A stretch of DNA of 64,000 nt from Calditrichaceae bacterium (GCA_050173015.1 JBFXLE010000003.1:205992-269991), one strand, 5' to 3'; shown: positions 59,609 through 64,000, counted from the first letter of the stretch. The notes: a model not told the origin generated them from the letters alone. Made by a program: numbers and translations.

Positions 59609-60934
59609 TTAAAAAATATACAGCGCCGCTCTTTTGGCATAGGCCATTTCGAGATAGGTTAAACGCCATCCCTGATCGGTCCGGATCATATACAAATGAA
59701 GGACATCGCCAACCCGGATATCATATTTTGCGAGACCGGCGGGATTTATGTTTTTGAAGATCGATTTCAGGTGCAAATCTTTGGCGACATAGTCACCATT
59801 AAAAATCTCGGTTATCTCATAGAATCCTTCCACCTGATTCAAATCCTGATTTTCATCTGAAAGCAGGAAATCCATAAACGGATAATCACGTTGATAACCG
59901 CGGGTAATTTTCAGGACTCTTTCGATATCGGAGAAATTATCATCCATGAACCGTTCAAACAATCCGCTCATATTTACATGATCATTGTATTCGAGAAAAT
60001 GGATAAACCTCGAGAACAGCATTCTGACATTCTTTAAATCGATCCGGTCATCAACCACAACCTCATGTTCCATAAAAATCAGAAAAAATTCTTCCAGATC
60101 ATCGATATTCATTTCTTCAACGCGTTTTATTTCCAGGTAATCTGTAAGATATGTTTCAAATTTTTCCAGCAATTTTAACTCAATCACTGCACCGTACTGA
60201 TCTTCATACCCTTCTCTGAAATCTGCGATGATGGAAGGAATATTCGGAACACCTATTTTCCAGGGTTCGATCTCTTCTTCCTCGTCCTCTTCATCATAAT
60301 CGGAGAGCATATCTTCCCAGATATTCTCATCCGACTGAAGCAGATCACTAAACTTATCACCGGCATTATCATCCGGCTTGCTCAAAAGATGCTGACCTTT
60401 ATTTCGGATAAATCCTAAAATGATCGTCATCAAGAATTCCGCAAATTCTATCAGTTCCAGATCCGTTTCATCCAGAATCAGATTCAGCTCATAATTATAA
60501 TAATCCACCAGAGAATCGAGAACAACATAATTCAGAATATCCGAATGGAGACACTGTTCTTTTATGGAGCAGTCGCCGGGCTTCAGATTTAACTCACTGA
60601 TGAATGACTTTCTTTCGGTCTTTTCATCAATGCTTAATACTTCGTCCATTTTACCCGGACATCCAAGGGAGCAGGCGCCAAAGCAGTTTTTTTCAAGAAA
60701 CATCTGCAGGCTGTCGCCGATATTGAAAGCCAGAGTACCGATGTCTTCACTGCCGAGATATAAACGGGTTACATGCGCGGGATCAGAAAAGAATTCCTTC
60801 TCGATCACCGATCCAAGGTCGTTTATAAGCAGGAATATGAAGTAATCCAGATTGTTTAATTCATAAACTTCTTTTTCCCAGGAGCTCACAAATTCCCGCG
60901 CTGATATATATGTTTTTTGAAATCTTTCTGCCAA
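59609..60934 (-). CDS. Acidic hypothetical protein with a Cys cluster and an integrase-N-terminal-like helical segment
   Basis: 441-aa ORF; TTG start with GAGGA RBS and its own promoter; CFGACSLGC...C....C; poly-Asp/Glu tract. Confidence 0.75.
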   Translation of the reverse strand: MAERFQKTYISAREFVSSWEKEVYELNNLDYFIFLLINDLGSVIEKEFFSDPAHVTRLYLGSEDIGTLAFNIGDSLQMFLEKNCFGACSLGCPGKMDEVLSIDEKTERKSFISELNLKPGDCSIKEQCLHSDILNYVVLDSLVDYYNYELNLILDETDLELIEFAEFLMTIILGFIRNKGQHLLSKPDDNAGDKFSDLLQSDENIWEDMLSDYDEEDEEEEIEPWKIGVPNIPSIIADFREGYEDQYGAVIELKLLEKFETYLTDYLEIKRVEEMNIDDLEEFFLIFMEHEVVVDDRIDLKNVRMLFSRFIHFLEYNDHVNMSGLFERFMDDNFSDIERVLKITRGYQRDYPFMDFLLSDENQDLNQVEGFYEITEIFNGDYVAKDLHLKSIFKNINPAGLAKYDIRVGDVLHLYMIRTDQGWRLTYLEMAYAKRAALYIF

Positions 60935-60959
60935 CTTTAATCCTCTTCTTTTTTATGAA

Positions 60960-60988
60960 AATTTACACTCCGTCCATTCATCTGTCAA
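60960..60988 (-). promoter_or_regulatory. sigma70-type promoter of the acidic hypothetical gene
   Basis: Minus strand TTGACA-17-TAAATT. Confidence 0.65.
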
Positions 60989-61085
60989 ATAAAAAAAGCT
61001 GATTGAATTCAATTGTTTTTACCGGATTCATTTCTTAATTTATCCGACCACCAGAAATGTTCATAAATTAGCAAGGAGAAACAAA

Positions 61086-62480
61086 TTGAAATTCAAAGAA
61101 CTCACCGCCCCAACTACCGGTAAAGGTATTTCAATTGAAAACATGGAACTTAACGTTCCTGATAATCCGATAATTCCCTTTATCGAAGGTGACGGTACCG
61201 GACCCGATATTTGGCGCGCTTCTCAGTATGTTTTCGACAAGGCGGTTGAAAAAGCATACAACGGAAAACGTAAAATTGAATGGTTTGAAGTATTCGCCGG
61301 TGAAAAAGCCTTCAAAACCTATGGCGACTGGCTGCCGGAAGATACAGTAACCGCGTTCAAGGAATATCTCGTCGGGATCAAAGGCCCTCTGACCACTCCG
61401 ATCGGCGGCGGTTTCCGTTCATTAAACGTCGCTCTGCGTCAGATACTCGATCTGTACGTATGTCTGCGCCCCGTCCGTTATTTTAAGGGCGTTCCTTCCC
61501 CGGTCAAAAATCCCGAAAAAGTGGATATGGTGATTTTCCGTGAAAACACCGAAGATATTTACGCGGGCATCGAATGGGCAGAGGGTACCTCCGAAGTCAA
61601 AAAGATGATTGATTTCCTTCAGAATGAAATGGGTGTAAAAAATATCCGCTTCCCAAACAGTTCCGGTATCGGTATTAAACCCGTCTCAAAAGAAGGATCC
61701 GAACGGCTTGCCAAATCGGCCATCGAATACGCGCTGAAACACAACCGTAAATCATTGACCTTTGTCCACAAAGGAAACATCATGAAATTTACCGAAGGCG
61801 CTTTCAAAACCTGGGGTTATGAAGTCGGTGTAAAAGATTACCGCGACCAGGTAGTCACTCAGCGTGAAAGCTGGATTCTCGGAAATAAGGACGGCGACGC
61901 CAACCTTTCCGTTGAAGACAACGCCAGAATGATTGAACCCGGTTATGACATGATGACCGACAAGCAGAAACTGGATATCCGCACCGAAGTGGAAGCCGCG
62001 CTGAAACTGATGCCGACACACGGTAACGGCCAGTATAAAAACAAACTGATGCTTAAGGATACCATCGCGGATATTACGCTGCAGCAGGTATTGACCCGCG
62101 CCAACGAATTTGATGTGGTGGCTACCATGAACCTGAACGGCGATTATCTTTCCGACGCCCTTGCCGCGCAGGTAGGCGGTATCGGTATCGCTCCGGGAGC
62201 CAACATCAATTATATCACGGGACACGCTATTTTTGAAGCCACCCACGGCACCGCTCCAAAATACGCGAATCTGGATCAGGTAAACCCCGGTTCGGTGATT
62301 CTTTCCGGCGTGCTGATGTTTGAATATATGGGCTGGCAGGAAGTGGCCGATCTGATTGTAAGCGGTCTGGAAAAAGCCATTTCCAACAAGACGGTTACAT
62401 ACGATTTCCACCGTCAGATGGAAGGCGCCACCAAACTGAAAACATCAGAATTCGCGAAGGCGATCGTCGAAAATATGTAA
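61086..62480 (+). CDS. icd: NADP-dependent isocitrate dehydrogenase (homodimeric type)
   Basis: [86 protein letters not shown] start after AAGGAG. Confidence 0.96.
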
Positions 62481-62497
62481 TCTCCATCCTTTCTATC

Positions 62498-62536
62498 AAA
62501 AAGGCTGACACGGAATATGGTGGCAGCCTTTTTTTT
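62498..62536. terminator. Bidirectional terminator after icd
   Basis: AAAAAGGCTGACAC...GTGGCAGCCTTTTTTTT. Confidence 0.8.
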
Positions 62537-62565
62537 ATCAAACATCTCCCATCTTTTTTCTTTTA

Positions 62566-62606
62566 TCTTAACTTCCCACTTCTTACTGCCTACTTCCTAC
62601 TTCCCC
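62566..62606 (-). repeat. Heptamer tandem repeat abutting the stop codon of the helical protein gene
   Basis: Minus strand GTAGGAA GTAGGCA GTAAGAA GTGGGAA GTTAAGA. Confidence 0.7.
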
Positions 62607-63263
62607 TCACGATCTTTCCACAATGCCCAGCTTCTCCAGCAACTGCGGTTTTTCTTCCAGGGCGATGCGGGCGATGGCGATAAAATCGCTCAACCAGAAT
62701 TCCAGGGCGTCAAGAGCCTCGTCCCGTTCCACCGTGGCCTGTTGCGCTTCCCCTTTTTCCTTTTCCTGGGCGGCGTTCAGGCTAACCGTTTCTTCAATCA
62801 ACTGTTTACCAGCGAGCAGTTTTTCTTCGGTGATATTAAATTTGGCCATGGCGGTGATGATATCCGGGGCGGTGGTGGCGTTGATATAAAACTGAGTTGC
62901 CTGCGCCAGCCAGCCGGAGAGACTCCCTTTTCGTCTTCCGTTTAAATCCAGTTTCTGTGCTGCTCCACGGTCACTTTGCAGGGCGATTCGGGCAATTTTT
63001 ACATGTTTCATATAGACCGCGCTTGCCTTGTCCTTTACGGAGTTCACCGCATCGGTGGCTTCATACTGTTCGCCATATTCGCGAATCTGTTTTTGCTGTA
63101 ATTCATGCGCGGTGTCGAACAAAGCCTTGCCTTCGTTGAGACGGGTGTCGTCGTAACCGTATTCGGCCAGATAGGATTTTACCTGCTCATCGGACAAGGC
63201 GTTGGTAATCGCCAGTTCCGCGGCCATCATGCGTATTGCCATTGATTGACTGGACATAGTCAT
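62607..63263 (-). CDS. All-helical hypothetical protein with an internal two-fold duplication
   Basis: AAGGAG lies 7 nt before ATG 63263 (the ORF track starts at 63269); the halves share NA...L..GK.L...Q..E.GE...AT...IARIAL......KL. Confidence 0.85.
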   Translation of the reverse strand: MTMSSQSMAIRMMAAELAITNALSDEQVKSYLAEYGYDDTRLNEGKALFDTAHELQQKQIREYGEQYEATDAVNSVKDKASAVYMKHVKIARIALQSDRGAAQKLDLNGRRKGSLSGWLAQATQFYINATTAPDIITAMAKFNITEEKLLAGKQLIEETVSLNAAQEKEKGEAQQATVERDEALDALEFWLSDFIAIARIALEEKPQLLEKLGIVERS

Positions 63264-63433
63264 GTTCATTCTCCTTATTTATTCATCCTTTTATGAATTA
63301 ACCGGACGATGCCGGGAATAACTCATGCCGCATTTTGATGAATCAATTCAAAGATGTTTATGAATTCACGTTTAAAGATAGACTACATGCCGATACAGAG
63401 AAACAATAATACAATAACATAAGATCAAAAAAC

Positions 63434-63715
63434 GGTAATATGTCATTTCTGACATGGTAAAACTCATGCCCACCTGGTAGCAGTCGCTCTCGGGTGGTAG
63501 AAATCGTTACCAACCCGGTAGAAGTCATTCCCGGACGGTAGAAATGATTGTCAACCCGGTAGAAGTCATTCCCGGGCGGTAGAAATGGTTGTCAACCCGG
63601 TAGAAGTCATTCCCGGATGGTAGAAATGATTGCCAACCAGGTAGAAATCATTCCCGAATGGTAGAAATCACTTCAGGACCGGAATTTGTCATTTTTGACC
63701 GGTGAACTGTTATTT
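63434..63715. repeat. Non-coding tandem array of alternating 20-nt and 21-nt units (41-nt period)
   Basis: Units start at 63434, 63456, 63476, 63496, 63517, 63537, 63558, 63578, 63599, 63619, 63640, 63660, 63681 and 63701. Type A is GGTAGAAGTCATTCCCGGRY; type B is GGTAGAAATGATTGTCAACCC. Confidence 0.92.
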
Positions 63716-63873
63716 AAAATCCATATTTTGTAAAAAACTTTTGTTTAGAAAGTACGAAATAAGACAAAAAACGCTTTTAGCTTGATTGCTTTATTTATTG
63801 TTCGGCGAGCTCGTGAAAATCTTGAGGGAAATTTTTGTGTAGATACAGTTTTTTATTAATTATGGGCTCATTG

Positions 63874-64000
63874 TGTTCTGCCTCAGAACCTTTTGGAATT
63901 TTCGGACAAATTTAATACTATGACTTTTTAGTTAACTTGCCAACTTTAAATTCTCAAAATGACGTTCTTGTTTTGCCTGTTCTACCTTCAATTTTCTTTC
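63874..64000 (-). mobile_element. Probable downstream end of an IS3/IS481-like insertion sequence; continues beyond the window
   Basis: TGT-starting terminus TGTTCTGCCTCAGAACC at 63874; minus-strand ORF tail ERKLKVEQAKQERHFENLKLAS* (64000-63932) resembles the basic helical C-termini of rve transposases. Confidence 0.35.

Follow-up and report, generated by a model that had tools for sequence, protein, structure and literature searches.

The array and its genomic setting

The locus lies at the right-hand end of the DNA stretch analysed here (the window, 64 kb from a Calditrichaceae bacterium), where contig C3 of a 4.34-Mb assembly of 54 contigs also ends. It contains the following features:

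62551-62604, no strand assigned: heptamer tandem repeats (ATCTTTT and ACTTCCT on the plus strand), located directly after the PQLLE stop codon (Tandem Repeats Finder, TRF)
62607-63269, minus strand: gene of 220 aa belonging to the PQLLE family, here p220 (ORF call, NCBIfam NF052641)
63270-63433, minus strand: spacer or leader of 164 nt between array and start codon, with a strong ribosome-binding site (sequence)
63434-63455, 63456-63475 and 63476-63495, no strand assigned: three degenerate array units of 22, 20 and 20 nt (sequence register)
63496-63680, no strand assigned: array core of nine units, alternately 21 nt (B type) and 20 nt (A type) long (sequence, TRF, autocorrelation)
63681-63700 and 63701-63715, no strand assigned: two terminal degenerate units, one of 20 nt and a stub of 15 nt (sequence register)
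63716-63870, no strand assigned: AT-rich segment on the side of the array that faces away from the gene (sequence comparison)
63871-64000, no strand assigned: end of a multi-copy, insertion-sequence-like element, outside the module (repeat copies in the assembly)

As read from the sequence, the array at 63434-63715 is composed of 14 units which begin with GG(T)A and abut each other head to tail, and the alternation of 21-nt and 20-nt units in the core gives rise to a higher-order period of 41 nt. TRF reported this period for positions 63467-63668 (4.9 copies, 86% matches, score 271), together with weaker additional rows at periods 20 and 21. By autocorrelation across the whole array, the identity at lag 41 was 0.705, compared to 0.249 +/- 0.026 in 1000 shuffles (maximum 0.349), and it amounted to 0.447 at lag 20 and 0.437 at lag 21. 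Lags 10 and 11 were at background, and no sub-period of 10.5 nt was detected. The array is the sole stretch of the 64-kb window in which the identity exceeds 0.6 at any lag between 12 and 69. A preliminary description, made from the sequence without database searches, had listed about 14 GG(T)A-like units with a 20/21 alternation, together with coordinates and A and B types, and every detail that we checked was correct.

The same description had regarded the repeat as non-coding and as distinct from CRISPR, and we agree on both points, since the 41-nt period breaks the reading frame and the units abut without unique spacers. No ORF of at least 30 aa spanning the array was found, and just two short ORFs on the minus strand (63358-63528 and 63372-63473) touch its degenerate left end. 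Of the contigs from four runs that were compared with the locus, a single one crosses the array: a contig of 1123 nt from run X1, which is possibly the source sample itself, spans positions 62781-63903 with zero differences and gives weak support against an assembly artefact.

The gene-proximal part of the spacer at 63270-63433 is also present in a second copy of the module on contig C11, and a consensus scan of this spacer revealed no sigma-70-type promoter between array and gene. On the gene-distal side, positions 63726-63836 are conserved (83%) with C11:556-665, again flanking an array, there with a different unit sequence. The segment 63716-63870 is a candidate promoter region that may read through the array toward the PQLLE gene; its promoter-like hexamers are weak here (8/12), and by eye they are better in the C11 copy. 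About 35 nt past the conserved segment the insertion-sequence-like element ends contig C3, and the sequence to the right of it is unassembled. Copies of 63871-64000 with 98-99% identity are located at the end of C40 and at the start of C33, and weaker ones on C2 (C2:3843-3922), C43 and C42. The C33 copy presumably encodes a transposase-like C-terminus on the minus strand, as read by eye. The locus is flanked by housekeeping genes and its setting is chromosomal; the gene further to the left of p220 we take to be an isocitrate dehydrogenase gene.

Both PQLLE paralogs of this genome, that of the window and that on C12 (L036, 1450-1494), have tandem heptamers of the AAGTAGG/AAGTAAG kind immediately behind the stop codon. 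Such heptamers are also present at many other intergenic sites (C1:217, C4:255562, C6:211017, C10:92778, C12:98-311, C20:10180 and C39:23653).

The PQLLE family

The start codon of p220 lies 164 nt from the array. The protein matches NCBIfam NF052641 ("PQLLE family") with an E-value of 2.9e-74 and 249.3 bits (cut-off 80) over residues 8-216 of 220, and a profile search of the whole genome placed the paralog on C12 above the same cut-off. The window genome has two PQLLE genes. No Pfam family matches p220. We found at least 504 homologs, every one of which is labelled hypothetical, and most of them are located on contigs of 1-5 kb. Among the named carriers of a homolog are Marinoscillum furvescens and a strain of Reichenbachiella. 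No fused forms were detected, and the lone longer match is an ORF which runs through an array. Homologs were absent from 72,556 plasmids and 50,697 phages searched by tblastn and from viral contigs scanned with the profile.

The protein is acidic (pI 4.99, net charge about -8; the median pI over 120 homologs is 5.07). Its AF2 model (pLDDT 94.6) is all-helical with two internal repeats, each predicted to have four helices, of which the first has 17 residues, the third has 56, and the second and fourth are short. Foldseek searches of PDB and BFVD yielded no match at E <= 0.001, and the top hit of a wide VIA structure search, a BAR domain, had a Z of 9.9, a value to be expected of any long helical bundle. 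An Atlas search led to unnamed clusters and, at 0.88, to DUF6261, which Pfam scans did not confirm. No recognisable DNA-binding domain was found in PQLLE proteins with Pfam and NCBIfam, and the family has no informative structural neighbour.

Linkage between array and gene across phyla

The preliminary description had proposed to scan the flanks of homologs of the 62607-63263 protein for periodicity, and the outcome of this check was strongly positive. Scanning one genome per species provided 35 PQLLE loci, to which three loci from relatives of the window genome were added. According to the record titles, the 35 loci belong to Cytophagia, Cyclobacteriaceae, Bacteroidales, Calditrichaceae, Ardenticatenaceae and other Chloroflexota, Aminicenantes, Pirellulaceae, Spirochaetes, Rubricoccaceae and Chitinophagales. 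Two genomes reached via these loci have 9 and 38 PQLLE matches, respectively, and 19 further loci were taken from these two genomes. An array was counted when TRF reported a period of 20-22, 41-43 or 62-64 within about 1-1.5 kb of the PQLLE gene.

By this definition, 53 of 55 PQLLE loci from Bacteroidota, Calditrichota, Chloroflexota, Aminicenantes, Planctomycetota, Spirochaetota and others have an array, which is located upstream in 46 cases and only downstream in seven; the two loci without array are L044 and L148. These counts include paralogs and related genomes and are thus not independent, so that they overstate the statistical weight. Among the 36 loci with enough flanking sequence, that of the window included, the array was upstream in 31, only downstream in four and missing in one. 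The corresponding numbers for the 19 further loci were 15, three and one; at each of these three, the array belongs to a neighbouring PQLLE gene, upstream of which it lies. Of 62 control flanks of the same loci, five reached the autocorrelation threshold, and four of these five are the downstream arrays. No other neighbouring gene is conserved among the 36 loci. Arrays are also present in long-read assemblies (L065, L066 and L068).

The array is therefore part of a widespread two-part module, in which about a dozen units of 20-21 bp are combined with a small gene for the helical PQLLE protein. The listings and abstracts returned by our literature search contained no description of the PQLLE family or of arrays of about 21 bp beside it, and the module is apparently undescribed.

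The genome with 38 matches to the PQLLE model (G064, reached via L056) has a size of 10.4 Mb and is possibly a mixed bin, which makes the true copy number uncertain. Some of its PQLLE genes are arranged as tandem or convergent pairs sharing one array. At four loci from Chitinophagales and Bacteroidia (L071, L073, L074 and L075) the array starts just after the PQLLE stop codon; here the first unit pairs with its own inverted copy, and the resulting hairpin, with a T run behind it, is terminator-like; the other units resemble its 3' half in repeated form.

Conserved features of the arrays

The period of 20.5-21.5 bp is held across phyla while the unit sequence changes. A 21-nt register is kept in 42 of the 46 upstream arrays, and the exceptions include the array of the window with its period of 41 (20 + 21) as well as periods of 62 and 43. 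The upstream arrays have a median length of 248 bp and end at a median distance of about 125 nt from the start codon; in eight of the 46 this distance is 28-62 nt. Higher-order periods of 42 or 63 are common and are a signature of homogenisation by unequal exchange.

When the unit profiles were aligned by rotation, a shared purine-rich core emerged with 7.06 bits, compared to 4.06 +/- 0.08 in column-permuted nulls. With each array free to choose its strand, the core was on the sense strand of the gene in 35 of 42 arrays and inverted in seven, and the array of the closest relative (L043) is in the inverted minority. The units of the window scored 11.0 bits on the plus and 9.5 bits on the minus strand against the family profile (shuffles 3.9 +/- 0.5). 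Outside the core, the unit sequences are specific to the locus and to the paralog. Of 31 arrays, 23 have more GGA triplets on the sense strand and seven have more on the antisense strand.

A promoter-like pair of hexamers with at least 9/12 matches precedes the array in nine of 42 loci, and in eight of these nine it ends at most 27 nt before the first unit. Over all loci, the mean best score was 7.5 as compared to 7.06 in shuffles, and the positional signal is weak and post hoc.

The persistence of period, core, position and linkage to one gene family over such long distances suggests that the array is a cis-acting element of the adjacent gene. Further, a period which corresponds to two helical turns and which is independent of the sequence predicts a constraint at the DNA level, and we infer that duplex DNA is the level at which the array acts.

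Other arrays, inheritance and spread

The array with GGTAGAA units is present in a single copy in the 4.34-Mb assembly. The search for further copies that had been proposed earlier therefore found this type to be unique, but it revealed other variants: TRF detected at least 15 intergenic arrays in the whole assembly, with periods of 20, 21, 41, 42 or 62 and about five unit variants. Among 41 genomes, these variants are present only in the window genome (G000) and in the same-genus genome G001, in which two of them intergrade inside single arrays. In the module copy on C11, units of 21 nt with a different sequence are followed by a remnant of the region upstream of the p220 gene, which is cut by a mobile element. 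The commonest variant of the window genome is located upstream of MOSC, DUF2490 and lipoprotein genes. Similarly, in the long-read genome G063, two unrelated membrane-protein genes are preceded, at a distance of about 100-130 nt and in the same orientation, by arrays with 74-75% identity to the arrays of two PQLLE paralogs.

Within this long-read genome, the PQLLE paralogs are 37-88% identical at the protein level and all have arrays. The DNA homology between paralogs extends from the array to about 25-46 nt beyond the stop codon. It follows that the module is old and has been copied as one unit. In G001 (94% complete) no PQLLE match was found, yet arrays are present; thus, at least some arrays persist without the protein. 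At the orthologous site in this genome (G001:C18), downstream of the same upstream gene, there is a remnant of three units with 81% identity over 72 nt and no PQLLE gene. The units at 63434-63495 of the window are orthologous to this remnant.

Several arrays of the window genome are located in neighbourhoods of accessory genes (restriction-modification, DUF3800). A type II restriction-modification pair occupies C11:729-2343, just past the second module copy; one gene encodes an EcoO109I-family restriction enzyme and its neighbour presumably a DNA methyltransferase, as read by eye; a type I restriction subunit adjoins the array at C10:5784. A repeat of about 125 nt, which contains internal hairpins and in some cases forms tandems, is dispersed over at least 60 places in addition to C5:35588-35713. 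It adjoins several arrays (on C5, C43, C47, C4 and C46), and in the searched loci it had no Rfam match at the gathering score. The same genome also contains true CRISPR arrays with a repeat of 37 nt and periods of 71-75 nt (C27:42874-44106 and 59978-61570), which are unrelated to the 21-bp arrays.

A second protein family beside similar arrays

Another array of the window genome is located beside a gene for a protein of 255 aa, which has at least 430 homologs and matches no Pfam family. The members considered here are:

C1:18115-18879 (window genome): gene of the 255-aa family
C46:4721-5458 (window genome): gene of the 255-aa family
C4:47316-47555 (window genome): fragment
L110, L111, L113 and L116: loci of relatives

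In eight of nine loci an array with a period of 20, 21 or 41 is found downstream of this gene, 40-230 nt past the stop codon and beyond an intrinsic terminator; the periods are mostly 20 and 41. The comparison of the two families by hhalign resulted in a collinear, full-length alignment which is not significant as evidence of sequence homology (probability 2.9%, E 0.015). In its predicted pattern of helices, two of which have about 55 residues, the 255-aa protein matches PQLLE. To judge by these predictions, the 255-aa family is probably a structural relative of the PQLLE family.

Comparison with known classes of repeats

The module falls into none of the named classes that we considered. The iterons of plasmids and phages, to which Rep initiators bind, are direct repeats of about 17-22 bp that follow each other at about two helical turns, have a unit specific to the replicon and are found near a gene and AT-rich DNA. 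The window array resembles them in its direct repeats of 20/21 nt, about two helical turns apart, and its adjacent gene; a conserved AT-rich segment (63716-63870) lies beside it. In contrast to iterons, Pfam and NCBIfam do not assign the adjacent gene to any Rep family, the setting is chromosomal, the family is absent from the plasmid, phage and viral collections, the number of units is 8-16 instead of the usual 3-7, and arrays are also located upstream of ordinary genes. In tandem-repeat centromeres of plasmids, such as parC with ParR and sopC with SopB, one small protein polymerises cooperatively on an array which adjoins its own gene and serves as autoregulatory operator. The module differs from them in that no partition NTPase or adaptor is present, PQLLE is the only gene common to the 36 loci, the candidate binder is acidic and without a known DNA-binding fold, and copies are chromosomal and many. 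Thus, of the first reading in the preliminary description, the idea of protein-binding sites two helical turns apart fits the period, which is the strongest constraint that we found over the whole family, but its analogies with iterons and centromeres fail, since Rep and partition genes are missing.

With the sponge RNAs CsrB and RsmZ, the arrays have in common many purine-rich motifs on one strand, including the enrichment of GGA on the sense strand (23/31). They differ in their strict periodicity and in the lack of hairpins presenting the motifs. Titration of CsrA was set aside as a general mechanism, since CsrA was found in the window genome (86.5 bits) but in none of five other carrier genomes, which may be incomplete. 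Promoter-proximal variable-number repeats of contingency genes and the mosaic elements BIME and NIME are intergenic, present in many copies and fast-evolving, and they have higher-order units near accessory genes. Our arrays differ from REP/BIME elements in that all units are direct instead of palindromic, their period is conserved across phyla and they are tied to one protein family. By eye, the core looked like a palindromic operator, but its self-complementarity is not significant (profile self-complementarity 0.999, compared to 0.908 +/- 0.063; fraction 0.10, i.e. p about 0.10).

A coding repeat of 7 aa was set aside as well: stop-free frames are found in 27 of 46 arrays in sense and in 24 in antisense direction, and periods of 41, 43 and 62 are non-coding. 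Further, the variability along the unit has no period-3 signal (0.068, compared to 0.103 in permutations). As to RNA structure, the fold z of the window array relative to shuffles is -1.42 on the plus and -2.47 on the minus strand. For 46 related arrays the median is -0.42 in sense and -0.70 in antisense, and seven of the 46 have a sense z below -2. In a search of 62400-64000 with Rfam 15 in permissive mode the best E-value was 1.3, and in gathering mode 15 array loci yielded two tRNAs and nothing else.

Of the systems mentioned, it is by analogy the polymerisation of a protein on a phased tandem operator that the module would resemble most.

Proposed function and alternative explanations

Based on our observations, we propose that the array is a cooperative row of head-to-tail protein-binding sites, two helical turns apart, which forms the control region of the PQLLE gene. 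We favour this explanation tentatively, giving it somewhat less than an even chance. The module would comprise about 8-16 direct units of 20.5-21.5 bp each and a stand-alone PQLLE gene. Binding of a protein to one unit would be followed by recruitment of more copies of it on the same face of the helix, which would turn the whole 250-300 bp into one cooperative nucleoprotein switch that overlaps the promoter or lies close beside it. As the binder we suspect the PQLLE protein, which could be an autoregulator with a small regulon. We infer this role because it is the most economical one: PQLLE is the sole conserved gene, the unit variant follows the paralog, and the variant recurs at a few unrelated genes. 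The inversion of seven of 42 arrays relative to the gene is in line with a site in DNA, which tolerates inversion, while an RNA signal would not. On the other hand, the acidic nature of the protein, its lack of a known nucleic-acid-binding domain and the arrays of G001 without detectable PQLLE speak against this protein as the binder, and units with a mean of 20.5-21.5 bp cannot all stay strictly phased on one face over 12 units.

It is tempting to speculate further that PQLLE and the structurally similar 255-aa family constitute an unrecognised superfamily of array readers, in which each paralog reads its own variant of the unit of about 21 nt. A paralog would then polymerise head to tail along 8-16 units and switch its own gene and a few genes with the same variant. 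The paired 56-residue helices of PQLLE are predicted to be about as long as one unit of B-DNA. We consider such a superfamily possible, albeit doubtful.

Alternatively, the array could act as RNA. The position of the core, which is mostly on the sense strand (35/42), the hexamers close to the first unit and the short gaps to the start codon suggest that the arrays are probably transcribed, which would also fit a role at the RNA level. With a promoter just upstream of the first unit, the purine-rich units would be an unstructured, repeated 5' leader or non-coding RNA, a platform where an RNA-binding factor, which is possibly PQLLE, would bind at many sites and so determine translation, stability or read-through. 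The sense enrichment of GGA (23/31), the hexamers at most 27 nt before the first unit in eight of the nine best cases among 42 loci, the eight of 46 arrays which end 28-62 nt before the start codon and leave little room for a promoter, and the lack of a sigma-70-type promoter between the window array and its gene are all consistent with this. So is the folding of the arrays, which is no stronger than that of shuffles (median z -0.42), as expected for a single-stranded platform. However, a leader RNA leaves the period of two helical turns across eight phyla without explanation. It is also at odds with the inversion of seven of 42 arrays, with the seven of 55 loci in which the array is only downstream, and with the arrays of the 255-aa family, which lie beyond an intrinsic terminator. 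The evidence for promoters was obtained post hoc and is weak as a whole (7.5 versus 7.06 in shuffles), and CsrA, the one known GGA-reading partner of sponge RNAs, was found in none of five other carrier genomes. On balance we rate the leader RNA as unlikely, but as the main rival of the explanation that we favour. An RNA structure formed by hairpins of A and B units, which was the second reading of the preliminary description, is not supported: on the plus strand the z is -1.42, a sense z below -2 is limited to seven of 46 arrays, and there is no Rfam match. The partial complementarity of the A and B cores and the z of -2.47 on the minus strand are what can be said for it. That the array is a frameshifted remnant of a 7-aa coding repeat would be suggested by 21 being a multiple of 3 and by the open sense frame in 27 of 46 arrays, but the antisense frame is open in 24 of 46, periods of 41, 43 and 62 occur and a period-3 signal is lacking; and an assembly artefact is contradicted by the X1 contig without differences and by the arrays of the long-read loci L065, L066 and L068. 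The preliminary description had named the last two as possible refutations, and the evidence is against both. Taken together, hairpin RNA, coding remnant and artefact are hardly credible.

The arrays could also be selectively neutral or selfish minisatellites or intergenic recombination hot spots without regulatory role, near which PQLLE genes merely land. Such behaviour would account for at least 15 arrays in a genome with two PQLLE genes, for their location beside restriction-modification and DUF3800 genes and beside dispersed repeats, and for the confinement of the unit variants to one genus (G000 and G001 of 41 genomes). The higher-order periods of 41, 42 and 63 and the homogenisation specific to each array are typical of unequal crossing-over, and the remnant of three units in G001 resides at the orthologous site without the gene. 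Yet arrays have been retained beside paralogs with as little as 37% identity and in eight phyla, and they have kept one period, a core motif (7.06 versus 4.06 bits), a preferred strand (35/42) and a preferred distance (about 125 nt). Neutral turnover thus covers the orphan arrays and the fast changes in sequence, but not these conserved features, and we regard it as improbable. Much the same features that recall iterons, namely direct repeats of 20-21 bp at a spacing of about two turns, a conserved AT-rich segment flanking the array and a gene of undefined function alongside, could point to a replicon, plasmid-like or otherwise mobile, that has integrated here; the array would be its iterons or its centromere, and the adjacent gene would encode the initiator or adaptor. 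This we judge very improbable in view of the lack of any Rep, ParA/ParM or ParB/ParR family in the gene or in the conserved neighbourhood, the housekeeping flanks and the absence of PQLLE from plasmid, phage and viral-contig collections; moreover, up to 9 and 38 copies per genome are old, diverged paralogs and not recent mobile copies. The cooperative row of binding sites in DNA, as outlined above, remains the explanation that we prefer.

Significance of the module

The description of the module is of interest for several reasons. The PQLLE family, with more than 500 members of unknown function, gains a concrete partner, namely an array of fixed geometry, in DNA or RNA, beside nearly every copy of the gene. 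Arrays of this kind break short-read assemblies, which may have kept the module from being noticed. If PQLLE reads the array, its family would be a new one among the proteins that bind nucleic acids in a sequence-specific manner, and the paralog-specific variants would be orthogonal pairs of protein and site. If another factor reads it, the array would be a portable control cassette common to very distant phyla. Last but not least, if the array readers envisaged above exist, they would represent a new kind of bacterial regulator and operator, which is distributed over at least eight phyla and is present in dozens of copies in some genomes.
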